Origin: Candidatus Sericytochromatia bacterium
Lineage (GTDB): Bacteria; Cyanobacteriota; Sericytochromatia; UBA7694
Direction: 5' to 3'
DNA length: 64,000 nucleotides
NCBI GenBank assembly: GCA_018780035.1
Contig: JADMKE010000003.1
Coordinates: 146,753 to 210,752 of the forward strand
The position numbers and the translations under genes were made by a program. This document shows, one piece after another, positions 3,028 through 16,285 of this stretch (its first letter is position 1; every line of letters starts with the position of its first letter). The notes under the pieces were generated by a model that did not search any database, was not told where the DNA came from, and saw nothing but the letters and a program-made list of their open reading frames with translations.

Positions 3028-4560
3028 TTAAGGCGCCAGTTCCAAGAGTTTGAAGTAGGTTTGATTGTCGATCTTGCCGTTGGGCTCCAGGCCGTGTTGG
3101 GTCTGGAATGCTTTAACAGCCGCTTCGGTGCCTGGCCCAAATTGGCCATTGCTGCCTTTGGTGTTAAAACCCAGATGGGTCAATTTCTTTTGCAGGGCCC
3201 CGATATCCGCGTTAAAGTCACCTTTTTTAAACATAACTTCGGTGGGACGGCTGCGCTGGTGCTCCAAATAGGCGGCTTTGAGGGCTGCACGGGTGTGGGT
3301 GTCGATCGTGCTGCCGGTGGCCGGCAAATTGTGGGCCGTCTGGAAGGCTTTGACCGCAGCCGTTGTGCCCGGACCGTAAGCGCCCGTGGTGCCTTTGGTG
3401 TCGAAGCCCAAAGCGGTGAGTTGTTTTTGAATCTGACCAATTTCGTTACTGCGTTGACCTTGGCTGTGCAAGACCTTTCCGGTCTTTTTATAGCGATCAA
3501 CGGTGGCGGCATCCGTCACTGCTGCTTTGTGCATCATGGTCACATCATAGGTGCCAACCATGTCACCTTTGCCGGAGAGGCGGCCAGTTTGGGGATCGAG
3601 GCGCAGTTTGTGGGTGCCCCCTTGGGCGGGATCGTTAAAAGTGTAAAAGGTGCCGGCTTCATCTTGGCCCCGACCTGTGACCAAGACAAAGTGGTCGGTA
3701 ATCCCCTCGTTGTACTCTTTGCCGTCTTGTTTGCGGTAGCTCACACCCACAATCGCGGGGCGACCGGCGTTGAGTTCGGCATCGAGGGTATCCAACATTT
3801 TCTTGGCGTTGGTCTTGTTGACGGTGACGCGGCCTGAGGCATTTTCTTTACTTGCGACATAGGCTTCGCCTTTTTCCATGTCCCCATCGCGCACGCGGTC
3901 GCGGGCATCAAATTCGGTATAGGCGTCGGGGGTGCCGTCTTTGCCATGAATGGCGTTGTACATCATGGCCTCAGAGGCGCGGTAACAGCCGGTGCGGGTC
4001 TCCTGTTTAATGGCGGTCACGGGCACTTGTACAGGTTCTCCACGGTAAGCATCGCGCAAGGCGGCCACAGCGGCCACAGTGCCTTTGCCAAATTGGCCAT
4101 CTTTGGCTTTGATCAAGGCATTGCCCTGTCCCAGGGCTTTGAGATCGGGGTGGTTCAAGCGGCTGTCGAGGGCTTTTTGAATTTTGATAATTTCATCGGC
4201 ATTGGCGGGGTCTTGAATGCTCTGCTCGCTGATTTGCAAATGGCCCATGCCATTGCGCTGCAGCACTTGGTTGATCTCGTCAACGGTAATGCCATGTTGA
4301 TGGAGTCCAGCCCGAAAACCCGCCACAATTTCATTTTTCTGGTTTTGAGTCCATTTGGGGCCTTCGGAAATGCCCAGATCAAAACTGGCTTGGGCCGTGC
4401 CTCGGGCCGCACCCACATTGGCGGCATCGCTGGGGCGGACAGGGGGCAAAGGCACCTGGGTGGGCGCGGTCGTGGTGGGGCGGGGAACAGGACGCGGAAC
4501 CGATGTCGGGACCTGTGTCGGCACCGTCAGTCTGATCGGTTGATTGTTGGTTTGAACCAT
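3028..4560 (-). CDS. peptidoglycan-binding-domain protein with central papain-like (C39/CHAP-like) cysteine peptidase-like domain and Pro-rich N-terminus
   Basis: Three PG_binding_1-like repeats (GQFGPGTEAAVKAFQTQHGLEPNGKID, GAYGPGTTAAVKAFQTAHNLPATGSID, GQFGKGTVAAVAALRDAY). The central region has a candidate Cys (TGCYRASEAMMYN) and His (DHFVLVTG...FYTFNDP). The N-terminal 55 aa are rich in P/T/V (PTQVPTSVPRPVPRPTTTAPTQVPLPPVRP). No signal peptide. Confidence 0.5.
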   Translation of the reverse strand: MVQTNNQPIRLTVPTQVPTSVPRPVPRPTTTAPTQVPLPPVRPSDAANVGAARGTAQASFDLGISEGPKWTQNQKNEIVAGFRAGLHQHGITVDEINQVLQRNGMGHLQISEQSIQDPANADEIIKIQKALDSRLNHPDLKALGQGNALIKAKDGQFGKGTVAAVAALRDAYRGEPVQVPVTAIKQETRTGCYRASEAMMYNAIHGKDGTPDAYTEFDARDRVRDGDMEKGEAYVASKENASGRVTVNKTNAKKMLDTLDAELNAGRPAIVGVSYRKQDGKEYNEGITDHFVLVTGRGQDEAGTFYTFNDPAQGGTHKLRLDPQTGRLSGKGDMVGTYDVTMMHKAAVTDAATVDRYKKTGKVLHSQGQRSNEIGQIQKQLTALGFDTKGTTGAYGPGTTAAVKAFQTAHNLPATGSTIDTHTRAALKAAYLEHQRSRPTEVMFKKGDFNADIGALQKKLTHLGFNTKGSNGQFGPGTEAAVKAFQTQHGLEPNGKIDNQTYFKLLELAP

Positions 4561-4746
4561 GCCGCGTGTCTCCGCTTCTGAGGGTAATTTAAGTCGTTAA
4601 GAAAATTATGGCACAGCTGGCGTCTGATCTTGCGCAACCAAACACAGGATTGGTTTAAATTTAGTTTAGGCTTCGGTCTTTTTCGGCCCCAAAAAAATTC
4701 GCTGTTCTGATTTTATACCCAACTACAGGACTTTCTTAACACATGC

Positions 4747-6195
4747 TCAGCGATTGAGATCCAGCACCAATTCATGCAAAAAGTCCAAGCCCCAGAAAAA
4801 GCCTTCGACGCCCAGCCGTTCATCGTTGCCATGGGCCCGTGTGGCGGTGGCTTCGTCGACGCGGTAGGCTTCAAAGCCATAGACCTTGAGGCCCAAAGCA
4901 CGGTATAGCGAGCTGTCGGTTGAAGAGGTAAAGATGGTGGGCACCACGGGCAGGCCTGGATAGTGGCGGTGCAAGACCCGCTCCAAACTCGCAAAATATG
5001 CAGTGTCGGCGGGAGAATAAAGCGACTGATAATATTCTTCGATCTCAATTTTGACCGTCTTGTCCCCAATCACTTCGCGCAATTTTTGCAAAAAGCGCTC
5101 TTTGTCTTGCCCTGGCAAAAGTCGGCAGTCGAGGCTTAAACTGGCAGAATTGGGGATAATATTGGTTTTGTCGCTGCCACGCATGCCGGTAATTGAAATG
5201 GTGTTGCGCAACATGGCATTGATTTCAGGGTGCTCAGCCAAGGCCTTGAGAAAGGCCGGATTTTTGAGTGAGCGGGTCATGTCCTTTTGGTAGCCAGGCA
5301 AGCGGGTCACGTCACCGGGGTATTGCAGACGCAGGCTCTCAGCCAGTCCTGGCAAGACTTCAAAGGGAATTTCCTGGCTGTAGGCCAGAATTTTTTGGGC
5401 AGCACGCAGGGCCCGGTTGACGGCATTGTCAGCCATAGGCACCGAGGCATGGCCGGGTGTGCCAAAAAAGCTCAATTTGAGCCAGAGCGGGGATTTTTCA
5501 CCTATCCCGACCATGGCGTAGAGGGCTTGGCCTGTTTCGTTTTCGGTCACGGTTTTGCCTTCATCAATCAGAAATTCAGCTCCGCGAATCAGCTCAGGTT
5601 TGTTTTGAATCATCCAGCGCGAACCCGATGAATTGACCTCTTCATCGGCCACGGCCAAAAAGATCAGGTCGCGTTTGAGGGGCTGTTTTTCCCGTTTGAG
5701 CCGAATTAAGGTATAGAGATCAACGATGCCTTTGCCTTTGACATCAATCGCTCCCCGGCCATAGACAAAGCCTTTGTCGATCTGCCCCGAAAAAGGCGGA
5801 AAAGCCCAAAACTGGGGATCAGCCGGGACGACATCCATATGGTGCAAAAACACCAGGGGTTTGCGGCTGCCATCACCGCGCAAAATGGCATAAAGATTGG
5901 CCCGGTTTTTGCCATTTTCAGGACCAAGTTCAAAGAGCTGGTTTTCGATTCCCTCTTTGTCTAACAGGGCTTTGAGAAAGCGCGCAGTGGGCAATTCATT
6001 GCCCGGCGGATTGCTGGTATCCATGCGCAAATACTGCTGAAAATTGCGCAAGGCCTCTTGTTTCAAGGGGCTTGGTGGCGGCAAAGGTGAGAGTGCGCTT
6101 GCTGGCCAATTCAGGCAAAGACTGGCACACAGACCAGCGCAGAAACTGACACTCAAGCGAGTTCCAAACAACTTAAGCAACTGAGATTTGAACAT
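4747..6195 (-). CDS. M20/M25/M40 family metallopeptidase (secreted)
   Basis: Motifs HHMDVVP, GRGAIDVKG and ADEEV are the M20 metal-binding and catalytic signatures. N-terminal signal peptide. Confidence 0.8.
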   Translation of the reverse strand: MFKSQLLKLFGTRLSVSFCAGLCASLCLNWPASALSPLPPPSPLKQEALRNFQQYLRMDTSNPPGNELPTARFLKALLDKEGIENQLFELGPENGKNRANLYAILRGDGSRKPLVFLHHMDVVPADPQFWAFPPFSGQIDKGFVYGRGAIDVKGKGIVDLYTLIRLKREKQPLKRDLIFLAVADEEVNSSGSRWMIQNKPELIRGAEFLIDEGKTVTENETGQALYAMVGIGEKSPLWLKLSFFGTPGHASVPMADNAVNRALRAAQKILAYSQEIPFEVLPGLAESLRLQYPGDVTRLPGYQKDMTRSLKNPAFLKALAEHPEINAMLRNTISITGMRGSDKTNIIPNSASLSLDCRLLPGQDKERFLQKLREVIGDKTVKIEIEEYYQSLYSPADTAYFASLERVLHRHYPGLPVVPTIFTSSTDSSLYRALGLKVYGFEAYRVDEATATRAHGNDERLGVEGFFWGLDFLHELVLDLNR

Positions 6196-6313
6196 AGGGC
6201 CACTCCCGCTTTTTTCTTCAGGATACGCAAGACTGCCTCAATTGGGAAGATCCGGTGATTGAGTTCAAGACGCAGTTGCTCATCTATGTTCAGGTTTATG
6301 TACAGGTTTATGT

Positions 6314-9300
6314 TTAGGGGCGGTAATCAAATGCCACACGCAGGCGGTTATCGCTGCCCAGTGTGGGTTTAAGGGTGGTGCGTCCCGCTGCTTCTGGGCC
6401 CAAAGCCTGTGCCATCAAGGCCTGTACTGGCAGGGTGACGGTTGTTTCGCCCTTGGCGCTGGCACGGGTTATCCCCATTTTTTTCAATTGTTCGAGTACC
6501 GTGTCTCGGGCGCTGCCGCGAATAAAGTCCAGATCGAGGAAGCCAAAGAGTTTGGCCTGATCGACTTTGATTTCCACCTGATCTCCTGTTATGCGGGCAC
6601 CGATCACGATATCACTTACCACCGAGTGATCAAATTTCACTTCAATGCGGCCCTGATTGAGTGCTGTTTGGGTGGGTTTTTTGAGGGCTTCAGAGACCAA
6701 ACCATTGATCCAAGCCACCGCCATTTGATTGGGCGAAAATGTGACATTTCCACGCACGCCCTGATTGGAGGCCCGCACTTGCACATCCATGGGTCCGAGG
6801 CTGGTTTCAACCTTTTGTACGCCCAATTGCAAGTCGTAATTGACCTTGCCCTTGTCGCCAGTGATCAGGCTGCTGTCTTTGAGAGCGACCGTGACAGACT
6901 CATTGTTTAACCGGAATTGATTACCCAGCAATTTGAGAAAGGCCTGTAAATCAGGGTGATTTTTGGCCAAACGCATCAATTCATCGGATTTGATCCGAGA
7001 GGTTCCGCCCAATTGGGTGGTCTCTGAGCCCTGCAACTCACCTTCGCCAATGGCCAAATGGGTATCGCCACTGAGCTGGGTTCGGGCCTTTTCACCCCGG
7101 GTATCCAAGCTCCAATCGGCCTTTGCATCCACTGCCAGGCCGGCATCGGGGGTTGCTGCTCCCCAAATTTGCCCCTGATTCACAGTAAAATTGCCGTTTT
7201 CGGTCGTGACAGTGGCGGGGCCGAGTTGGCCCGAAGCCATGATTCGCTCTGCGCTTGCACCCAGGGTGCCTTGGTTGAATTTGACAGCGACATCTGCCCC
7301 AGGGGTATCCAGCTTGCCCTGGGCCTCAATGCCTTGAGCGGCAATCATTTCGGGAGACGCTGAAACACGGGTGGCCTCAGCACTGATCTGGCTGCTGGTG
7401 GTGCCATCGCTGCGGCGCACCTTGGCATCCGCTTCAAGCCGCACCTCACTTGCCACAGCCGCCGCGGGTAACATGCCATTTTTCTGAAAATAATCGCGCA
7501 GATAGTCCAGATAATTGGGCTGAATACCTTTGCGCTGAGAAAATGTACTTCGGGCAGCTGGTTCCATTTTGGCCAGGGCCCGCCACTCAGCATCTGTCAC
7601 CTTGGCCATGATGCCCCTCACGGTTTCATAACTCAGCCCGGTTTTCCCTGCACTGAGGCCATGGGGTGTAAGCAATTCTTTGGCCGGTTTTTGGGCCATT
7701 TCAATCCGAAACCCCATCAATTTTGCGGCAGCCTGAATCGCTGCTTCGTTGGGATTGAGTTTGACTTCAGCGGCGCTGAGTGAGGCCCCGGCTTCAGATG
7801 TAACCTGGCCATTGGCGCTGGTGCTCACACGCAGAGCTGCCTCTGGCTTTTCAAACTTGGTTTCACTGGCACTGTGGCTAAATGCTTGCAAACCAGCAGT
7901 GGCCGTGACTTTGCTCTGTTCGGGTGCATTCATGCCCTGATCTTGAAAGTATTTGCGCATATACAGCAAATAATTGGGTTGCAAGTTTTTCTCGGCAGCC
8001 AAGCTTTGCACAGACTTATCGTCGCCACTGGCCACCTTTTGCCACTCAGCAGGGGTGAGTTTGCCCAACAGGTCTTTGACCGTTTGAATCGTCAGACCCG
8101 AACGTCCAGGGGTAATCCCTTTGGGGGTGAGGTAGGCTTTGGGATTGCTGCGGCCATTCAAATCTTGGACAAAGGCCTTGAGACGGGATTCAAACGGCGA
8201 TTTAGCTTCTCGGACTGTTGCATCAAGCGCTAATTTTGCTTGACCGGTACTGATCTGGGGCGGGGCATTTTCTGCGTTGGAAAGCGCCCCACTGGCCAGT
8301 TGAGCGCTCACGCTGGCTTCTGTTTGCGTTCCTGAGGGTGTCTGGCTGCTGATTAAGGCCTTGAGATCGAGCCCTTGGAGTTGCATTAAAAGCCCTTTGC
8401 TGCTGCTCTCGAGATTGAGTCGGCCCAATTTAAACGACAAACTGCCCTGCAATTGGGTATTGCTGGCCAATGTTCCCGTTAGTTTTTGCAGATCACCCAG
8501 CAGGCCTTGCACCGGTTGTTCTTGTAAAAAAGCGACAAACTGGCCCAATTGGGTGGGATCAATGCCCAGATTGGCAGCTGTTTTGGCCAATTCACCTTGA
8601 TTGGTTGAACTGAGTAACGACTTGAGTAAATCCGTGGGCACTTGGCTGAAAATTTTCTCCAAACTGGCGCGGTCGATGCCATATTCTGCCAATTTTTTAT
8701 CTACAGCAACGAGGGCATCATCGATCTGCTTTTTCAAATTTTGAATGCGTTCGTCGGTCAAAACGCCTGCTGCTTGAATTGTGCCTTCGGCCTCGGTGAC
8801 TTCCAGTGAGGTGCTCTGGCCGTCGCTGCGAATTTCAGCCTCTGCTCTGTCGAGGGTCAGGTTATCAGGGGGAGCGTCAGCGGGTCGGGTTATGGTCATG
8901 TCAGGGACATCGGCAGCGGGGCTTTCTGGGCCCGTTCCGCCACTTAAACCCGCATTTTCACTCGCAATCCGCACCCGTCCATCGGGCAAAATCTCCAATT
9001 GGGGCTTTTCAGGGGTCAAGGTCACCCGTGAACCCTCCAAAACAGAACCTTCTCCGGCCAAATCTTTGCCATTTAAGCTTAAATTGCCGGGGTTAATATA
9101 GACCCGATTCCGCTCACTGTCCCAGTCCAAATCGATCTCACTTTGAATCCCCGAACCGGCATCCACCTGTAATTTGCCGTTTTCAAAAATCTTACGCATG
9201 TCTTCGGGTTTCAGACCCACAGCCCAGGCCAAGCCGTCTGCGGCTTTGTCACGGCTCCAATCAACGGCGCTATCCACTGTGTCTGAAATCGATTGCCTGA

Positions 9301-10057
9301 CCGCTTTGGGATCTTGTCCAATACCCGCCACTGTCGCGTCAAAAGCGTTATTGGCCTGCTCTCCAACCCAATTCCAAGCCTGAGAAAGGCCTTTTGTGAT
9401 CAGATCCGGTGTTTGATCCAAACGAGGCGCAACGAGCCCCGGCTGGGGTTGAGAACCATACTCCAAAAACAGGCGGCCTTGATCACTGCGCAAATCTGCG
9501 ATATGAAAGCCACCCACGCGAATTTGATGGTGACCAGCAACTCCTTCTTTTCCGGGGACATAGGTCACTTCTGCTTTGTGTTTGCCAAAAGGCAAGACAT
9601 CAACCACCCCCTGAGCGATCTGTTGGACAAAATCATGGGAGAGGGTGACCTCGACTTTTTTAATGGAACCTGTCAGGTCGTCAAGACTGCGCTGTTCAAA
9701 TCCGTTTTTGTCAGTGAGCTGCAGACCCTCAACCCGAACCTGAACCGGGGCTGCTTTGCCTTTGGGCGGTTCGGGAGCACTGTCTTCAAAGAAGAGCAAA
9801 ACCGACTCACTTTTACCGGATTTCAGCTGCTGCAGCGTTGCCAGGGCATCTTGACTGCCTGTTTTGCCTGTTTTGCCTGTTAGGCTATCTGCCATCCACT
9901 TTTCAAATTGGGCTTCAGTGGCTTTGGGATTTTCTTTTTGATAGGCCTGTTGGAGGGTCTGCACTTCCTGGCGGGTCAGCCGTTTATCTGCAATCAAAGT
10001 CTGGAAAGTCTGCCGAGATGACGAAATTTGAGTCACAAAATCCTCCACGGATAGCAT
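6314..10057 (-). CDS. large (1247 aa) hypothetical protein with internal ~75-aa repeats
   Basis: Long uninterrupted ORF. Internal repeats LTPKGITPGRSGLTIQTVKDLLGKLTPAEWQKVA...QPNYLLYMRKYFQDQGM and LTPHGLSAGKTGLSYETVRGIMAKVTDAEWRALA...QPNYLDYLRDYFQKNGM. No signal peptide and no known catalytic motif recognised. Confidence 0.5.
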   Translation of the reverse strand: MLSVEDFVTQISSSRQTFQTLIADKRLTRQEVQTLQQAYQKENPKATEAQFEKWMADSLTGKTGKTGSQDALATLQQLKSGKSESVLLFFEDSAPEPPKGKAAPVQVRVEGLQLTDKNGFEQRSLDDLTGSIKKVEVTLSHDFVQQIAQGVVDVLPFGKHKAEVTYVPGKEGVAGHHQIRVGGFHIADLRSDQGRLFLEYGSQPQPGLVAPRLDQTPDLITKGLSQAWNWVGEQANNAFDATVAGIGQDPKAVRQSISDTVDSAVDWSRDKAADGLAWAVGLKPEDMRKIFENGKLQVDAGSGIQSEIDLDWDSERNRVYINPGNLSLNGKDLAGEGSVLEGSRVTLTPEKPQLEILPDGRVRIASENAGLSGGTGPESPAADVPDMTITRPADAPPDNLTLDRAEAEIRSDGQSTSLEVTEAEGTIQAAGVLTDERIQNLKKQIDDALVAVDKKLAEYGIDRASLEKIFSQVPTDLLKSLLSSTNQGELAKTAANLGIDPTQLGQFVAFLQEQPVQGLLGDLQKLTGTLASNTQLQGSLSFKLGRLNLESSSKGLLMQLQGLDLKALISSQTPSGTQTEASVSAQLASGALSNAENAPPQISTGQAKLALDATVREAKSPFESRLKAFVQDLNGRSNPKAYLTPKGITPGRSGLTIQTVKDLLGKLTPAEWQKVASGDDKSVQSLAAEKNLQPNYLLYMRKYFQDQGMNAPEQSKVTATAGLQAFSHSASETKFEKPEAALRVSTSANGQVTSEAGASLSAAEVKLNPNEAAIQAAAKLMGFRIEMAQKPAKELLTPHGLSAGKTGLSYETVRGIMAKVTDAEWRALAKMEPAARSTFSQRKGIQPNYLDYLRDYFQKNGMLPAAAVASEVRLEADAKVRRSDGTTSSQISAEATRVSASPEMIAAQGIEAQGKLDTPGADVAVKFNQGTLGASAERIMASGQLGPATVTTENGNFTVNQGQIWGAATPDAGLAVDAKADWSLDTRGEKARTQLSGDTHLAIGEGELQGSETTQLGGTSRIKSDELMRLAKNHPDLQAFLKLLGNQFRLNNESVTVALKDSSLITGDKGKVNYDLQLGVQKVETSLGPMDVQVRASNQGVRGNVTFSPNQMAVAWINGLVSEALKKPTQTALNQGRIEVKFDHSVVSDIVIGARITGDQVEIKVDQAKLFGFLDLDFIRGSARDTVLEQLKKMGITRASAKGETTVTLPVQALMAQALGPEAAGRTTLKPTLGSDNRLRVAFDYRP

Positions 10058-10253: not shown

Positions 10254-10562
10254 ATGAGTTTTGGACGAGTTTTGGACAAACATGGGATGACGAATATGAA
10301 CCGAAAAACCACATCTGAATTTTTTATGACACCGGAAGGGCTCCGATTTCAGATTTGCAATCGCAGCCTTCATTGGCTGGACAATATTCCTGTCTCAGAC
10401 CAGCAACCGACTTCAATCGAAATGACTGAAATGTTGTTTGGCTGGTACCTGTCTCAACGGGAACTGCCTTTGCCCCACGGTGAAGAAGGCGATCAAATTT
10501 TGGGAGAGGCTTTTGCTGAATTATTGGGTGGCCAAGCACTCAAGACAAAAGTGTCTGCTTAG
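10254..10562 (+). CDS. hypothetical small protein (weak call)
   Basis: 102-aa ORF in an otherwise non-coding gap. No SD and no recognisable domain. Confidence 0.2.
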   Translation: MSFGRVLDKHGMTNMNRKTTSEFFMTPEGLRFQICNRSLHWLDNIPVSDQQPTSIEMTEMLFGWYLSQRELPLPHGEEGDQILGEAFAELLGGQALKTKVSA

Positions 10563-10599
10563 AACCCATTCCGCAAACGGAAGCTCAAGAAAAACACCC

Positions 10600-11130
10600 A
10601 TGGATATTGCACTTTGGAGCCGAGTACTGCATTTTTCTGCCCAGAAACATGCAGGTCAATTGCGCAAAGATGGTTTAACGCCTTATATCAACCATCCCAT
10701 TGAGGTCGCCTATGTGCTTACAGAGGTAGGCAGAGTGAGCGATCCCGCTTTGGTTATGGCTGCGCTCCTGCATGACACCTTAGAAGACACCCAGACCACA
10801 ACCGCCGAACTGGCAAATGCCTTTGGTGACGAGGTTTGCAGCCTGGTTCAAGCGGTCAGCGATGACAAATCTTTGCCCAAAGCCGAACGCAAAAGATTAC
10901 AAATTGAACATGCGTCCGATTTAAACCCCAAAGCCAAGCAAATCAAGCTCGCAGACAAAATCTGCAATCTTCAAGATCTCTTGGCACAACCACCCGACGA
11001 TTGGCCCCTGTCGCGCCGATTGGCCTATTTTGACTGGGCTGAACAGGTCGGCTTGGGGTTGCGTGGTGTCAATGCGGCTCTGGAAGCCCATTTTGATCAG
11101 GTTTTAGCGCGAAGGACTGAACTGCATTGA
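10600..11130 (+). CDS. HD-domain guanosine polyphosphate pyrophosphohydrolase-like protein (SpoT/Mesh1-type HD domain)
   Basis: Motifs YINHPIEVA and LLHDTLEDT (the His-Asp signature of the RelA/SpoT hydrolase domain), plus LADKICNL. Start taken at MDIALWS; the ORF is open from 10438. Confidence 0.6.
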   Translation: MDIALWSRVLHFSAQKHAGQLRKDGLTPYINHPIEVAYVLTEVGRVSDPALVMAALLHDTLEDTQTTTAELANAFGDEVCSLVQAVSDDKSLPKAERKRLQIEHASDLNPKAKQIKLADKICNLQDLLAQPPDDWPLSRRLAYFDWAEQVGLGLRGVNAALEAHFDQVLARRTELH

Positions 11131-11632
11131 GTCCCAGATCTTTAAGCAATTGCTCTAGCCAAGCCAATCCCGACTTCAGGGCATAGGTTCTGGGAATATG
11201 TACAAAAGCTGAGGGTATCCCGCTTTCTTGGGCGTGGCGTCCCAAGATATACATTGAATAATTGCAAACATACCTACCCGCATCGTAAGAAATGCGGGTA
11301 TCACTGCGTACGGGCAATTTCCAACTTAAGTGAATGTGTTCGGGTTGAAGTGGATCAATTGCCTGATCGAGCCCCAGGCGGCGATCCCGCATCTGATTAA
11401 AGGCGCGGCGTTCCAAGCGCAATAAATCGCCCCTGGGACATTGGCCCAAACCCAAAATATAGTCTGGATTAAAGAGCTTAACAGGTTCTAAAAACAGATC
11501 TCGTTCAAATCTGACGGGCAAAACTTGGGTATTTACCCCCGGCCGCTCTGGCAAAAGATTTAACATTTCTTGGGTGATATTTTTGCGGTATTGGCGAAAG
11601 GGGCCAAAGCCATAAATCCAAATTTTGGGCAT
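11069..11632 (-). CDS. pcp: pyroglutamyl-peptidase I (peptidase C15)
   Basis: Begins MPKIWIYGFGPF (the Pcp N-terminal signature). Carries the catalytic Cys in a GRYVCNYSMY context and a conserved His (VHIP). ATG at 11630-11632. Confidence 0.7.
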   Translation of the reverse strand: MPKIWIYGFGPFRQYRKNITQEMLNLLPERPGVNTQVLPVRFERDLFLEPVKLFNPDYILGLGQCPRGDLLRLERRAFNQMRDRRLGLDQAIDPLQPEHIHLSWKLPVRSDTRISYDAGRYVCNYSMYILGRHAQESGIPSAFVHIPRTYALKSGLAWLEQLLKDLGLNAVQSFALKPDQNGLPEPH

Positions 11633-11758
11633 CTTTGATCTCTTTCTAAGTGTGCCTTTGGGGTCCATTTTTGAGGGGATTTTTAACCTCTGCGTATGAT
11701 AGTATAAAAACAGGGTAATAGTAAAATCGGGCGGGTCTCCCCCCACAAGGAGCACGGC

Positions 11759-11980
11759 ATGAATTTGGAATATGAAGCGGATGTCGCTGAAGAAGACGAA
11801 GATCATGATGAAGCCTTGGGCGAAGAGTCAGATTCTTCTGTCTCTCTGATTATGGATAGCAGCGAAGAATTTGACCTTTCCGATGCGGATTCAGACGAGA
11901 GTGAAGACGACGATTATTATGAGACTGATTCAGATTTTGATGGCGACTACGATGATTCCGGGGGCGATAGCGGATTCTGA
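11759..11980 (+). CDS. hyper-acidic small protein (73 aa, over 50% Asp/Glu, Ser-rich)
   Basis: aaggag-type SD 6 nt upstream of the ATG. Sequence MNLEYEADVAEEDEDHDEALGEESDSS...DYDDSGGDSGF. Abuts the next gene. Confidence 0.5.
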   Translation: MNLEYEADVAEEDEDHDEALGEESDSSVSLIMDSSEEFDLSDADSDESEDDDYYETDSDFDGDYDDSGGDSGF

Positions 11981-12066
11981 TTCCTGAGCAGCCCCAGGAG
12001 CTGGTACGGTTTGAAGCGGCAAAGGTCTTAGAAGGGCAGGACCCTGCAGCGGCAAAACAGGCTTAT

Positions 12067-14097
12067 TTGGCCCTGTACCAGGATTTTCCCGATCTTCCCA
12101 ATTTGGCCTTTCGCTTGGGGCTTTTGTCTCAGGAGGAAGATCCGGAAATGGCGCTGATCTATTACAAACAAGAATTGGAAACACGCCCCCATTTTTGGGC
12201 CTGTCGCAACAATTTGGCTCTGTTATTACAGGCCCAGGGCCAATTTTCAGAGGCCAAAGCACAGTTTGAATGGGCTTTGTCAGATTGTCCCGAACCCATC
12301 GCCCAAGCCCGCATCTGGGAAAGTTTGGGAGACCTGTGGCAAGCGGAATCTTCTGCTGAGGCGATACGTGAGGCCTTAAAGGCCTATCAAAAGGCCCATG
12401 AAATTTCTCCACGCACCCCTCGCATATACTGGAAAATAGCTCAAATTTGGCGGGCCAGAGGCCAATTGCACTCGGCGATACAGGTTCTGCAAAATTTGAG
12501 CTATTTGATTCCCGAGCGTGCCTCGGTCTGGTTGGCTTTGGCTGAATTGCAAACCGCCAATTTGCAATATAGATCGGCAGAAGAGAGCTTGGAAACGGCT
12601 CTCAAGCGAGAGGCCTCACCCCAAGAAAAGGCCCAGATTTGTCTGCAATTGGCCCACGTGCAAAGTGAGGCAGGAGATCTGAGTCGGGCTGAGCGCTCAT
12701 TGCAAAGGGGCCGTCACTGTTTCCCTCACGATGGATTTAAACTGGCCCAACTTTCGCTATTGCCCCCGATTTATCAAAGCCAAAGTGAATTGGAACAGAC
12801 GCGTCAAAATTGGGAAAAGGCCTTAGAGGCACTGGCTGACGAGGCTGGGCCCCTTCAGATCGCAGATCCCGTGGCCGAAGTGGGTTCTCTGCCTTTTTAT
12901 CTGCCCTATCAGGGCTATAACGACTGTCGTGCCTTGAGTTTGCTCAGCGATATTTACACCCGTTTTTTACCCCCTCAGCCCGGACTGCCGCCCTCTGCCA
13001 AGAACGGGCGCCTGAAAGTGGCAGTTGTCTCTCATTATTTTCACTCCCACTCTCTGATGCAGTGTTTTGGGGGGCTGATTGAAAATTTGGGACGCGAACG
13101 TTTTGAGTTGGGCTTTTTTTCGCTCTCACCCCTGCTGGCGGACGCAACCACCTCAAGATTGCGCCAAAGAGCAGATCATTGGTGTGAATTGCCCTCTTCA
13201 CTGGCCGAGCAAATTCAGACCCTGCTTAAATGGCAACCGGATATTGTCCTTTATACCGATTTGGGCCCCCATTTGCCCACCTGGCTCCTGGGGCAATACC
13301 GACTGGCTCCCGTACAATGGGTCTTTCCCGGCCATCCGGTCACGTCGGGTTCGGCCCAGATTGATGGCTTTATTAGCAGCTGCTGGCTCGACACCCCCGA
13401 GGGCCAATGCCACTATCGCGAAAAACTGTTGCGCCCAGAGTTCTTGCCCACCTTTGTGACTCCCCCCCTGCTTCCTCTGAAGCAAAATATGCGCGCCAAA
13501 TGGGGTTTCACTGACAAGCATAATCTCTATCTCTGCCCTGTCAGTTTGTTTAAACTGCACCCGCTGATGGATGCCCTCTTTGCCGAGATTCTCTCCCAAG
13601 ATCCACAGGGTCTCATTTTGCTGCTGGATCGCCCCCAAAGTGGCCTGGATAAATCGCTTAAAGCCCGCTTTCAAAACAGCCTGGGCAAGTTGGCTGAACG
13701 GATTTGGTTTTTGCCGTGGCTCAATCCAGATGCGTTTATGCAATTGCTGCTCAATGCCGAAGTCTATTTAGAAACCTTTCCCTTTGGCAGCGGAACCACT
13801 CTGTTTTCGGCTTTTGCCTGTGGCATTCCGGTTGTGGCCCTGGCTCCAGAATTTGCACGGGGCCGTTTTGCCGCGATGTTTTATCAGCAAATGGGACTGG
13901 GAGACCTCATCGCCTGTGATCGCTCTGATTATCTCAAAAAAGCCAAAAATTGGGCCACGGACCCCGATTTTCGGGCTGCTGTCAGTCAACGAATTTTGGC
14001 CCACAACCACCGCATTTATCGCTATCCACCCGCTTTGGCCGCTTTTGAAAATGCCCTGATTGAGGCCCATCTGAATGCCGGGGGACGCAGTCTTTGA
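12067..14097 (+). CDS. TPR-repeat protein with C-terminal GT41 (O-GlcNAc transferase/SPINDLY-like) glycosyltransferase domain
   Basis: N-terminal TPR-like helices. The C-terminal half (KVAVVSHYFHSHSL...YLETFPFGSGTTLFSAFACGIPVVALAPEFARGRF) matches the GT41 C-lobe. The frame is open from 11971 with no ATG until 12148, so a non-ATG start (TTG 12067 or CTG 11977) is likely. Confidence 0.65.
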   Translation: MALYQDFPDLPNLAFRLGLLSQEEDPEMALIYYKQELETRPHFWACRNNLALLLQAQGQFSEAKAQFEWALSDCPEPIAQARIWESLGDLWQAESSAEAIREALKAYQKAHEISPRTPRIYWKIAQIWRARGQLHSAIQVLQNLSYLIPERASVWLALAELQTANLQYRSAEESLETALKREASPQEKAQICLQLAHVQSEAGDLSRAERSLQRGRHCFPHDGFKLAQLSLLPPIYQSQSELEQTRQNWEKALEALADEAGPLQIADPVAEVGSLPFYLPYQGYNDCRALSLLSDIYTRFLPPQPGLPPSAKNGRLKVAVVSHYFHSHSLMQCFGGLIENLGRERFELGFFSLSPLLADATTSRLRQRADHWCELPSSLAEQIQTLLKWQPDIVLYTDLGPHLPTWLLGQYRLAPVQWVFPGHPVTSGSAQIDGFISSCWLDTPEGQCHYREKLLRPEFLPTFVTPPLLPLKQNMRAKWGFTDKHNLYLCPVSLFKLHPLMDALFAEILSQDPQGLILLLDRPQSGLDKSLKARFQNSLGKLAERIWFLPWLNPDAFMQLLLNAEVYLETFPFGSGTTLFSAFACGIPVVALAPEFARGRFAAMFYQQMGLGDLIACDRSDYLKKAKNWATDPDFRAAVSQRILAHNHRIYRYPPALAAFENALIEAHLNAGGRSL

Positions 14098-14163
14098 GCT
14101 TGAGAAAGAGGGCAAAAGCAAACGGCCCGGAATCACTTCCGGGCCGCTGAGTCGCGCTCAGTT

Positions 14164-15168
14164 TTAGACCTTAAATCGGGATTCTTCAATGCTCGCAGGA
14201 AATTCCAACGTGGGCAAAGTCAAGCGGAAGTAAGGTTCTTTGCTGCCTGCCTCGTTGTACATTTCCCAGAGCACAATCCCGTAGGTCTGTGGATCATAGC
14301 CAATATGCTCATGGGTCACGCGGCTGTCCATGGTATTGGTGCCGGAAGTGGTCAATTTTAGAATCTGGATCTTTTTGCCATTTAAGGTGGTCGCCCCAAT
14401 CAGCTCGGCGTCATAACCAGACGACATGCGGCGAACCACACCAAAGAAATCGGTGTCATCCAAGGGATACCCATTATTGGAGACCACGCGCTCATCTTTT
14501 TTGTCCAATTCAGTGGTGACAAAGCTCAAATTACCACCGGGGCGGATTTTGATTTTGCTGCCGACGCCCGAGTTATACAACACCTTGGCTCCAGAGGCAC
14601 CCGAAGAGGAGAAAGAAACTTCAATTTTGACCGTATTGGGTTGTTTTGTATACATGCTCAATTTATTGGTCGTGACTTTGCCCGTCTTGAGATTTTTCTC
14701 AATTTTTTCAACCGAGGCCTGAATAAAAGGGGCTGACTTGACTTTGTCGAGCAATTTTTTGAGCTCTTGAGCCCCGCGCTCTTTGGCGGTCAGCTTGGGT
14801 GGGGTTGTGGTCGCAGGTTTGGCGGGGGTCGTTGTGCCCGTTGTTGGCTTGGGGGTTGTTGTCCCTGTTGTGGGTTTTGTGGGCGTGCCTGTACTGGGTT
14901 TGGTTGGGGTGCTGGGTACGGGCAAATCGTCGTCTGCTGCACGCAATTCCAAGGCATCGATCTTTGTTTTAATATCTTCAAGACCCTCCATGATTTTGGG
15001 CAGGGTATCTAAAAGTTTTTGTGTTGTGGCATCGATCGTGCTAGATGTTTGCAACGAAGGAGAAAGGTCTGTGGGATCTTCTTTGCTGCCGCAACCCGGT
15101 AAAAGCACCGAGGCTGAGAGCATTGATGCTGTCAAAATGCGGAACAGTACAGGGCGAAGGGTCATCAT
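14164..15168 (-). CDS. lipoprotein, paralog A (Thr/Pro-rich linker plus ~200-aa C-terminal domain)
   Basis: Lipobox LLPGCGS. Linker TPTKPSTGTPTKPTTGTTTPKPTTGTTTPAKPATTTPP. The C-terminal domain is about 50% identical to the next gene. Confidence 0.6.
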   Translation of the reverse strand: MMTLRPVLFRILTASMLSASVLLPGCGSKEDPTDLSPSLQTSSTIDATTQKLLDTLPKIMEGLEDIKTKIDALELRAADDDLPVPSTPTKPSTGTPTKPTTGTTTPKPTTGTTTPAKPATTTPPKLTAKERGAQELKKLLDKVKSAPFIQASVEKIEKNLKTGKVTTNKLSMYTKQPNTVKIEVSFSSSGASGAKVLYNSGVGSKIKIRPGGNLSFVTTELDKKDERVVSNNGYPLDDTDFFGVVRRMSSGYDAELIGATTLNGKKIQILKLTTSGTNTMDSRVTHEHIGYDPQTYGIVLWEMYNEAGSKEPYFRLTLPTLEFPASIEESRFKV

Positions 15169-15283: not shown

Positions 15284-16285
15284 CTAAAGCTTGAAGGTGC
15301 TTTCTGGCAAAGAGTCGAGGTACTCAATGCTGGGCAACACAATTCGGAAAAAGGGCTCTTTGCCACCACTTTTATCATACATCTCCATCATGCGAATGGC
15401 ATAGGTCTGGGGATCATAGCCAATATGTTCATAGGCAATTTGGGCATTTAAGCTGTGGGTGCCATTGGGCACGACCTTGAGAATATTCACTTTACTGCCA
15501 GCCACGGTGGCAGTGCCAAGCAAAGTGGCTTTATAACCCGACGACAGGCGTTTGGTGGCACCAAAGAAATCGGTGTCATCCAGCGGGAATTTATTCACAG
15601 AAATCAGGCGTTCATCCGTTTTGTCGAGGTCGGTGACGACAAAACTCAGGGCCCCTTGGGGACGGACCTTGACTTTGTTGCCCACCCCAGAGGTATAGAG
15701 AATTTTGGTTCCGGGGGGGCTTTTGCTCGATTGCAAAACTTCAATTTTGACTGTATTGGGCTGGCGGGTTGAGAGTTTGAGCTTATTGGTAACGGTGCTG
15801 CCATTTTGCAGGTGTTTTTCGATTTTTTCAATGGTACATTGAACCGCTCCCGCAGAGGTAAAGGTGCTCAGAACCTTCATCAATTCTGCTTGGCCTTTTT
15901 CAGCTGCACTGGGGGCCGCTGGTTTGGCGGGTGCTTTGGCAGGAGCGGTTGATGTTGTTGGCTTGCTGGGGGTGCGTGGCGGCGTGGTCGTCGGTTTGGT
16001 GCCTGAAGCCGCTGGGGTCACTGTGGGAGCCGAGGGTTGGGTTGTTGCTGCCACGGGTTGAACTTCCAGGGCTACAATTCGGGCCTTGATATCGTCAATC
16101 CCGGCCATAATTTTGGGCAGGCTGGCCAAAATCTGCTCGGTTTGAGCATTGTTGGCAGGGGTTAAGGCTGCAGATTGGGTTAAAGGGGCGCTTGGCAACT
16201 CTTCAGAGCCTGTGCCACAGGCACTCAAAATCAAGCTGCTTGCTAAAAAAACGGAACTGATCCGGGGCCAAATGGATGAACGCAT
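15284..16285 (-). CDS. lipoprotein, paralog B (tandem duplicate of previous gene)
   Basis: Lipobox LILSACGT. Shares with paralog A the LPKIM-GI-DIKA-I-ALE helix, a T/P/A-rich linker and the C-terminal domain (GYDPQTY, PLDDTDFFG, KEP-FR--LP). Confidence 0.6.
   Translation of the reverse strand: MRSSIWPRISSVFLASSLILSACGTGSEELPSAPLTQSAALTPANNAQTEQILASLPKIMAGIDDIKARIVALEVQPVAATTQPSAPTVTPAASGTKPTTTPPRTPSKPTTSTAPAKAPAKPAAPSAAEKGQAELMKVLSTFTSAGAVQCTIEKIEKHLQNGSTVTNKLKLSTRQPNTVKIEVLQSSKSPPGTKILYTSGVGNKVKVRPQGALSFVVTDLDKTDERLISVNKFPLDDTDFFGATKRLSSGYKATLLGTATVAGSKVNILKVVPNGTHSLNAQIAYEHIGYDPQTYAIRMMEMYDKSGGKEPFFRIVLPSIEYLDSLPESTFKL

Follow-up and report, generated by a model that had tools for sequence, protein, structure and literature searches.

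The genome of Candidatus Sericytochromatia bacterium (assembly GCA_018780035.1), a member of the non-photosynthetic sister lineage of cyanobacteria, encodes a hyper-acidic protein of 73 amino acids (aa) directly upstream of a glycosyltransferase resembling the O-GlcNAc transferase OGT. Both genes lie within the window, a 64,000-nucleotide (nt) stretch of contig JADMKE010000003.1 in which all positions below are counted unless a locus is named: the acidic open reading frame (ORF) at 11759..11980 (+), and a gene for a tetratricopeptide repeat (TPR) protein with a GT41 glycosyltransferase domain at 11977..14097 (+). Their shared conservation and the sequence of their junction are best explained if the two form a Sericytochromatia-specific two-gene operon. 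That the acidic protein is a functional partner of the enzyme seems to us probable from this comparative evidence; we incline, with less assurance, to the more specific proposal that it is a dedicated ligand of the enzyme, encoded together with it in a translationally coupled operon. Bacterial OGT/SPY-like GT41 enzymes are widespread, and their targets and regulation are mostly unknown. This locus presents a natural one-enzyme, one-partner pair, in which a 73-aa disordered polyanion accompanies a catalytically intact-looking GT41 in the sister lineage of the photosynthetic cyanobacteria.

The acidic ORF begins at an ATG (11759) and ends at a TGA (11978-11980). Six nt 5' of the ATG stands a Shine-Dalgarno (SD) motif, AAGGAG (11747..11752, +), read directly from the sequence, and the string aaggagcacggcATG is kept in all close relatives. 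An earlier reading of this DNA, made from its letters alone (the sequence-only reading), had placed the ORF at exactly 11759-11980 and remarked on its good SD. We found an orthologue of 72-79 aa directly 5' of the orthologous GT41 gene in every relative that was fetched, about 10 lineages in all. The close relatives represent six species-level groups (L001/L014, L003, L004/L005, L006/L017, L007/L008/L016 and L015), and the outgroups that carry the gene are L009, with a GT41 that is 60% identical, the Blackallbacteria genome L010/L011/L019 (49%) and L012 (46%). In every relative with a GT41 of at least 46% identity, the acidic gene either overlaps the GT41 gene by 4 nt or ends no more than 33 nt 5' of it (spacings of -4, -4, +6 and +33 nt), which bears out the co-conservation that the sequence-only reading had looked to. 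The pairing is kept despite differing upstream contexts, whether the neighbour is a pyroglutamyl peptidase (Pcp), a transposase or an ABC ATPase.

Selection on the acidic ORF was measured by pairwise Nei-Gojobori comparison with the window. The ratio of nonsynonymous to synonymous divergence (dN/dS) was 0.04-0.08 at dS values of 0.35 to 1.3, below the 0.12-0.17 of the enzyme itself. Three motifs are invariant: E-E-x-E-D-x-(D/E)-E-A-L-G, E-D-x-D-Y-Y, and (Y/F)-D-(D/E)-x-G-G-D-S-G-F followed by the stop codon. Conservation spans the whole length of the protein, with no leader/core pattern. Because dN/dS is this low and conservation extends beyond chance, the acidic ORF is a real gene, and the purifying selection on it is very strong.

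Beyond these genomes no member of the family was found. A word-indexed search with a family profile returned six clusters, all from the Sericytochromatia/Blackallbacteria contigs studied here, and when 1.84 billion cluster representatives were searched exhaustively with an HMMER profile, only 3 clusters came back, all belonging to the Sericytochromatia acidic family. When the C-terminal motif was back-translated and sought among 185,579 species representatives, it was met in 4 genomes, all Sericytochromatia or Blackallbacteria; among 241 million metagenome records it was met at one known locus and in one further sequence, reading GGDCGF, which is not acidic and was rejected as a chance match. 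Searches of Pfam, NCBIfam, PHROGs and PADLOC, and a profile search of the PDB, gave no homologue of the acidic protein, and literature searches for the motif GGDSGF, or for Sericytochromatia together with O-GlcNAc, found nothing. By these comparisons the acidic protein is an orphan family restricted to one lineage. No acidic ORF was found 5' of the GT41 genes at three more distant loci (L013, L020 and L021; approximately 32-38% identical), and the partner therefore belongs to one GT41 subfamily. At one of these loci, L013 (GT41 35% identical), the place of the acidic gene is taken by a gene for a 528-aa secreted TPR protein (3418-5004), which overlaps the GT41 start via a canonical ATGA.

Of the residues of the acidic protein, 20 are Asp, 13 Glu and 12 Ser; Lys, Arg and Cys are absent, and the net charge is about -33. 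Asp and Glu together make up 45% of the 73 residues, and 50% of a 30-residue segment quoted in the sequence-only reading, which was right to call the protein highly acidic and slightly overstated the share as more than half. Elsewhere in the window, across all six frames of its 64 kb, the Asp/Glu content of a 73-aa stretch never rises above 26%. The many Ser in acidic context that had also been remarked upon are a feature of the window clade and not of the family, across which Ser71 is the sole invariant Ser; the family-wide conserved traits are the acidic and aromatic motifs. An AlphaFold 2 (AF2) model made from the family alignment reached a predicted local distance difference test score (pLDDT) of 62 and a predicted template modelling score (pTM) of 0.13, and its only structured element is a six-residue helix over the DEAL motif (residues 14-19). 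The protein is thus predicted to be an intrinsically disordered polyanion bearing linear motifs and an invariant free C-terminus, GGDSGF. Constraint of this strength on a disordered chain is the hallmark of partner-binding linear motifs.

Extreme negative charge without a single basic residue would also suit a stand-alone polyanionic mimic, whether an Ocr-like DNA mimic with an anti-restriction role, a decoy of the tail of the single-stranded-DNA-binding protein SSB or a cation buffer, lying next to the GT41 gene by coincidence; an acidic tail ending in Phe moreover recalls the C-terminal tails of SSB and T7 gp2.5. We consider this highly improbable. The family was not met apart from this GT41 subfamily, its gene sits in a chromosomal, syntenic context (near valS) and not in a mobile element, its translation appears physically coupled to that of the enzyme (see below), and none of the PHROGs, PADLOC and PDB searches gave a match. 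Ocr and ArdA are likewise small and very acidic, but they are folded dimers of phages and plasmids, whereas the acidic protein is predicted to be disordered, is encoded on the chromosome, occurs in a single bacterial class and is linked to a glycosyltransferase. Membership of the Ocr/ArdA group was rejected, there being no predicted fold, homology match, or phage or plasmid context, and the suggestion of an Ocr-like mimic made in the sequence-only reading finds no support.

Other known classes of small protein were considered and set aside. A precursor of a ribosomally synthesised and post-translationally modified peptide (RiPP) or glycocin was rejected on the lack of a protease or exporter conserved across lineages, the lack of Cys and the conservation over the whole length; a Pup- or ubiquitin-like modifier on the C-terminus (GGDSGF, as against GGQ/GGE), the lack of PafA, Dop and proteasome genes in any locus and the lack of similarity to hidden Markov models. 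The likeness to an SSB-type tip (D-D-D-I/L-P-F) goes no further than an acidic run with a Phe at its end; Pro-Phe and an oligonucleotide/oligosaccharide-binding (OB) fold are both lacking.

The downstream gene, of approximately 706 codons, matches the GT41 domain PF13844 with E = 1.4e-15 (57 bits against a cut-off of 25), and several Pfam TPR families match residues ~50-290 of its product, which agrees with the TPR/GT41 identity first proposed from the translation. An AF2 model of the enzyme (pLDDT 86, pTM 0.83) shows 14-15 paired helices from residue 5 to 258, making up ~7 TPRs, followed by a GT-B domain. Compared with the PDB, a profile of the subfamily matched both catalytic lobes of human OGT, as well as SPINDLY, TtOGT and HMW1C, and covered XcOGT over nearly its full length. 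Foldseek matched the model to SPY (E = 5e-27), OGT, XcOGT and TtOGT, of which TtOGT was structurally the closest (TM-score 0.77, normalised to the target). At the catalytic-Lys position (equivalent to hOGT K842 and TtOGT K341) lies the Lys of LFKLHP, which aligns with the Lys of XcOGT 'syKlnp' and with TtOGT K341, a Met in the K341M mutant chain that was crystallised. The phosphate-binding Thr-Thr of GSGTT aligns with 'nahTT' and 'sgcTT' (XcOGT and TtOGT), and the His in FHSHS with the N-lobe His of TtOGT. All of these residues are invariant in the subfamily associated with the acidic partner. By homology, then, the enzyme is a member of the GT41 (OGT/SPY-like) family, and with its catalytic motifs intact it looks active.

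Where the two genes meet, the GT41 frame is open from just after a TAG (11968-11970) to 14097, its opening lying 3 codons ahead of the acidic stop in most loci, and the TGA of the acidic ORF falls within it, as had been observed from the letters alone. The first ATG in this frame, at 12148, lies 168 nt past 11980, in good agreement with the roughly 170 nt without ATG reported there, and the first canonical start of any kind is a TTG at 12067. In neither the window clade nor L012 do the first 30 GT41 codons (11977-12066) contain an ATG, GTG or TTG. Nevertheless, this 30-codon segment is stop-free at 8 loci in the GT41 frame only, the other two frames having 1-3 stops; its indels, of 3 and 9 nt, are in frame; its dN/dS is 0.14-0.5; and in the AF2 model helix 1 and the first half of helix 2 are built from it. 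From this frame-specific openness, the indels, the dN/dS and the predicted helices, the segment is evidently coding despite lacking a canonical start. In the enzymes of L009 and L010, moreover, which start at an ATG 33 nt and a GTG 6 nt after the acidic TAA, respectively, the N-terminal helix aligns with the window residues encoded by 11980-12066.

Could the acidic ORF instead be a chance frame, or the remnant of a 5' leader, with the enzyme starting at TTG 12067 as annotated? Gene callers do place the GT41 start at a TTG or ATG 30-61 codons past the CTG discussed below. The TTG, however, is not conserved in position (its alignment position varies between codons 28 and 33), has no SD, and falls inside a predicted TPR helix, which it would cut, since the 30-codon segment spans helix 1 and part of helix 2. 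The SD and ATG of the acidic ORF, on the other hand, are conserved, and its dN/dS is low at saturated synonymous divergence. This reading, to which we assign next to no probability, is refuted by the selection on the acidic ORF together with the evidence on the N-terminus of the enzyme. Public gene calls (P0004-P0011 and P0014) start at a TTG or ATG 30-61 codons past the likely start, P0004 being additionally cut by the end of its contig; judged by alignment, the database proteins are N-terminally truncated by 30-61 residues and lack the first TPR helix or helices.

The sequence-only reading, which noticed that an ATG was missing, stopped short of what follows from it: the GT41 start is most likely a non-canonical codon that overlaps the stop of the acidic ORF. 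A CTG at 11977-11979, in the GT41 frame, overlaps the acidic TGA as CTGA (11977..11980, +), and we propose from sequence comparison that this is a non-canonical, coupled GT41 start. The junction string GGATTCTGATTCCTG is invariant in 7 close-clade loci, synonymous sites included, where synonymous divergence elsewhere reaches 1.3. The distant L012 has the same CTGA overlap, with its GT41 likewise in the -1 frame, and it is this overlap common to the window clade and L012 that points to CTG 11977 as the start. The same junction in independent assemblies of different species excludes, on comparative grounds, a sequencing error. Twelve nt 5' of the CTG, comparison of the loci shows an SD-like GGGGG (11960..11964, +; GGAGG in L007), formed by the invariant Gly-Gly codons of the acidic ORF, which may help re-initiation at the GT41 gene. 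Translation of the enzyme thus most likely begins at CTG 11977, through termination-reinitiation or a tightly coupled initiation, with an ATT at 11974 or 11980 as a less likely fallback start in the window clade. Ribosomes would end the acidic ORF at its TGA and start again on the CTG that overlaps it (a flanking ATT being the less likely site), and the enzyme would be made only when its acidic partner is made, probably at a far lower level. Such scarcity of the enzyme, as a poor start codon would produce, is compatible with either a substrate or a regulator role for the partner.

A different use of the same junction would be the production of a single fusion protein, by programmed -1 frameshifting in the window clade or by read-through of the stop in the outgroups. 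The GT41 does lie in the -1 frame relative to the acidic ORF without a canonical start, tRNA-Phe could slip from UUC to UUU in L012, and in L009 and L010 the GT41 is in the acidic-ORF frame without an intervening stop. Yet the window clade lacks an X XXY YYZ slippery site (the sequence is GGA UUC UGA), no covarying RNA structure was found downstream of the junction, and each outgroup enzyme starts at an ATG or GTG of its own. In all loci, besides, the stop codon is invariant and so is the GGDSGF C-terminus before it, which argues for two separate proteins, and we judge a fusion improbable. A frameshift-stimulating or riboswitch-like RNA at the junction was rejected after the predicted hairpin showed no compensatory covariation, and no Rfam family was found there. 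In the outgroups the corresponding intervals are L009 3965-4003 and L010 3992-4003, over which the GT41 start is in frame with the acidic ORF with no stop between; read-through of the TAA would there fuse both proteins, the -1 arrangement being that of the window clade and L012.

The codon before the acidic stop deserves a comment of its own. The last acidic codon (11975-11977) is TTC in 10/10 loci (the window, L001, L003, L004, L006, L007, L009, L010, L012 and L015), although in the adjacent GT41 genes no more than 3-23% of Phe codons are TTC and eight genes of the window use 29 TTC against 128 TTT. The terminal C is kept even at the loci with a TAA stop and a separate start codon for the enzyme. 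Codon bias was rejected as the cause, as the acidic ORF, compared with the GT41 gene, does not favour C-ending codons for Asp, Tyr or Glu.

Overlaps of this kind have precedent. Short gene overlaps are 4.5-8-fold enriched for interacting pairs and complex subunits (PMC10666635), and pairs overlapping by ATGA or TGATG are likewise enriched for complex subunits (PMC10666635, PMC6728339). Such pairs, trpBA among them, share with the present locus the -4 nt stop/start overlap and the downstream gene in the -1 frame. The 4-nt same-strand NTGA pattern is present at 11977-11980, but with a non-canonical CTG, and, unlike in the ATGA/TGATG pairs, the synonymous change that would turn the overlapping start into TTG is avoided. 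Comparative genomics here makes a case for CTG serving as a start codon within a CTGA overlap of stop and start.

How might the acidic protein engage the enzyme? We propose that its acidic and aromatic C-terminal half (~45 residues) would thread the concave channel of the ~7-repeat TPR superhelix with the free GGDSGF end as an anchor, and that the segment after the DEALG helix (Ser/Thr 24-29) would be presented at the active site, either as an acceptor substrate or as a pseudosubstrate gating access for other substrates. Asn residues at TPR position 6 form the ladder that lines the channel of OGT. The channel of the present subfamily would instead have invariant Arg/Lys (R46 and K153) where the ladder of OGT has Asn. 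R46, R77, R149, K153 and R552 (counted from the CTG) are invariant in 8 enzymes associated with an acidic partner, and the same five positions are mostly non-basic in 8 non-associated homologues. In the window the codons of these residues fall at 12112-12114, 12205-12207, 12421-12423, 12433-12435 and 13630-13632 (+), with R46 at position 6 of TPR1, mostly Asn in the non-associated homologues, and K153 at position 6 of TPR4.

Human OGT, likewise a GT41 with an N-terminal TPR superhelix, offers a close analogy, binding HCF-1 PRO-repeat and TAB1-type substrates in the TPR lumen. Its TPR channel holds an extended, disordered segment of the partner, namely the part of the substrate C-terminal to the reactive residue (PMC6240873, PMC5493779), and its catalytic Lys, His and Thr-Thr are conserved here. 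Human OGT differs in having thousands of substrates encoded elsewhere and a channel lined by Asn and Asp ladders, where the window pair has one co-encoded hyper-acidic partner and invariant Arg/Lys at the ladder positions. A further likeness concerns the C-terminus. In the TPR carboxylate clamp, the EEVD-COOH of Hsp70/Hsp90 is bound by Hop/CHIP, and peroxisomal targeting signal 1 (PTS1) is bound by PEX5. Here too a TPR domain would face a C-terminus that is free, acidic and invariant (GGDSGF-COOH); the sequences are unrelated, however, and the terminal residue is Phe rather than Asp. We put the chances that the acidic protein binds the TPR channel at about even. If it does, the pair would provide a minimal, easily expressed system for studying TPR-channel ligand selection and pseudosubstrate gating of an OGT-type enzyme.

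The sequence-only reading had suggested an enzyme-substrate or regulator pair. Co-conservation upholds the functional pair, with either role possible. That the acidic protein is truly glycosylated as a substrate strikes us as possible, and we hold this idea tentatively; that it serves as a non-glycosylated regulator or pseudosubstrate we regard as somewhat doubtful.

Several observations weigh against the proposal of a dedicated, translationally coupled ligand. The CTG start is assigned by elimination, and CTG was reportedly found by Hecht and colleagues in 2017 to be a very poor initiator in E. coli; a synonymous change from TTC to TTT would yield a canonical TTG start and is never seen. The TPR domain of the enzyme is itself overall acidic (isoelectric point 5.1, net charge about -13), and binding of a polyanion must therefore rely on local basic residues. 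The sole invariant Ser sits 2 residues from the C-terminus, an awkward place for an OGT-type acceptor, and this invariance of Ser71 alone, with Ser-richness found in the window clade only, argues against a simple poly-Ser substrate. Finally, the equally well-conserved neighbours of the pair include two Pro/Thr-rich lipoproteins that could be the real substrates.

The lipoprotein genes, at 14164-15168 (-) and 15284-16285 (-), encode paralogues 44% identical to each other, each with a signal peptide, a lipobox Cys and mucin-like Pro/Thr-rich linkers; neither has a match in Pfam or NCBIfam. Convergent to the GT41 gene, they are possible glycosylation targets. The acidic protein would then be a regulator or assembly factor, with the real acceptors elsewhere, for example these lipoproteins, glycosylated in the cytoplasm ahead of export on the pattern of HMW1C-HMW1. 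The lipoprotein genes adjoin the GT41 gene in all lineages, and their products are 66-69% identical where the GT41 is less than 50% identical (L010 and L012); their mucin-like PT linkers would suit such a role; a cyanobacterial GT41, Ogt, is required for an exported pilin to be glycosylated (PMC9306852); and the weak CTG start, by yielding far more acidic protein than enzyme, would fit an inhibitor or gate. Against this, synteny extends widely across these genomes, such that the convergent lipoprotein adjacency may be merely inherited, and the joining to GT41 at the level of translation concerns the acidic ORF only. We therefore see real acceptors elsewhere as unlikely, and continue to prefer the acidic protein as the dedicated ligand of the enzyme.

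A more speculative variant of the substrate role draws on another activity of human OGT, in which transient glycosylation of Glu10 of the HCF-1 PRO-repeat leads to pyroglutamate formation and backbone cleavage (PMC6240873). By analogy, the GT41 might glycosylate Glu/Asp carboxylates of its acidic partner and process it into fragments, and the Pcp encoded divergently 126 nt upstream in the window clade and L009 would trim the resulting N-terminal pyroglutamate. The support for this idea is the Pcp adjacency alone, which is absent in L010 and L012, and we regard it as a long shot; were it true, the locus would encode a bacterial pathway of proteolytic maturation driven by a glycosyltransferase.

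Among bacteria, cytoplasmic GT41 enzymes acting on specific proteins are known from the HMW1C-HMW1 adhesin system, from Synechococcus elongatus (Ogt-PilA) and from Thermobaculum terrenum OGT (PMC3012730, PMC9306852, PMC4683255). Their substrates are large exported proteins, whereas the protein described here is a 73-aa cytoplasmic polyanion. To our knowledge, none of those enzymes is translationally coupled to a small ORF. The single ingredients of the locus, namely GT41 enzymes, ligand binding by TPRs and coupling through overlapping stops and starts, are already known; we found in the literature no described counterpart in which an OGT-type enzyme is coupled in translation through a CTGA to a hyper-acidic, disordered partner.

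In the window clade and L009 the acidic ORF has the Pcp gene (peptidase C15, 187 aa; 11069-11632, -) as its divergent neighbour; L010 has a transposase upstream instead, and L012 an ABC ATPase. A long minus-strand ORF at 11069-11806, running over the 5' end of the acidic gene, proved from the gene calls of relatives to be really the Pcp gene ending at 11632, which therefore leaves a clean, divergent intergenic region of 126 nt before the acidic gene. Within it, a consensus scan gave weak evidence of a candidate sigma-70-type promoter for the acidic-ORF/GT41 operon, TTGAGG-18-TATGAT (11671..11700, +). At the other end, a terminator-like scan gave similarly weak evidence of a GC-rich hairpin between the convergent GT41 and lipoprotein genes (14121..14148, -), a possible operon-end terminator.

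Further upstream, a syntenic gene for a 1247-aa protein (6314-10057, -; 1231-1282 aa across the window clade and L009) has no Pfam or NCBIfam match. Genes related to (p)ppGpp metabolism are found on one side of the pair or the other, depending on the lineage: the window clade and L009 have, upstream, a gene for an HD_4 protein resembling small alarmone hydrolases (RelA/SpoT-type; 10438-11130, +), and in L010 a RelA_SpoT synthetase-like gene (6173-7303) lies directly 3' of the GT41 gene. In the window, the end of the HD_4 gene (11130, +) overlaps the end of the C15 gene (11069, -) convergently by 62 nt, and comparable overlaps of 62-77 nt occur in L001, L006 and L007.

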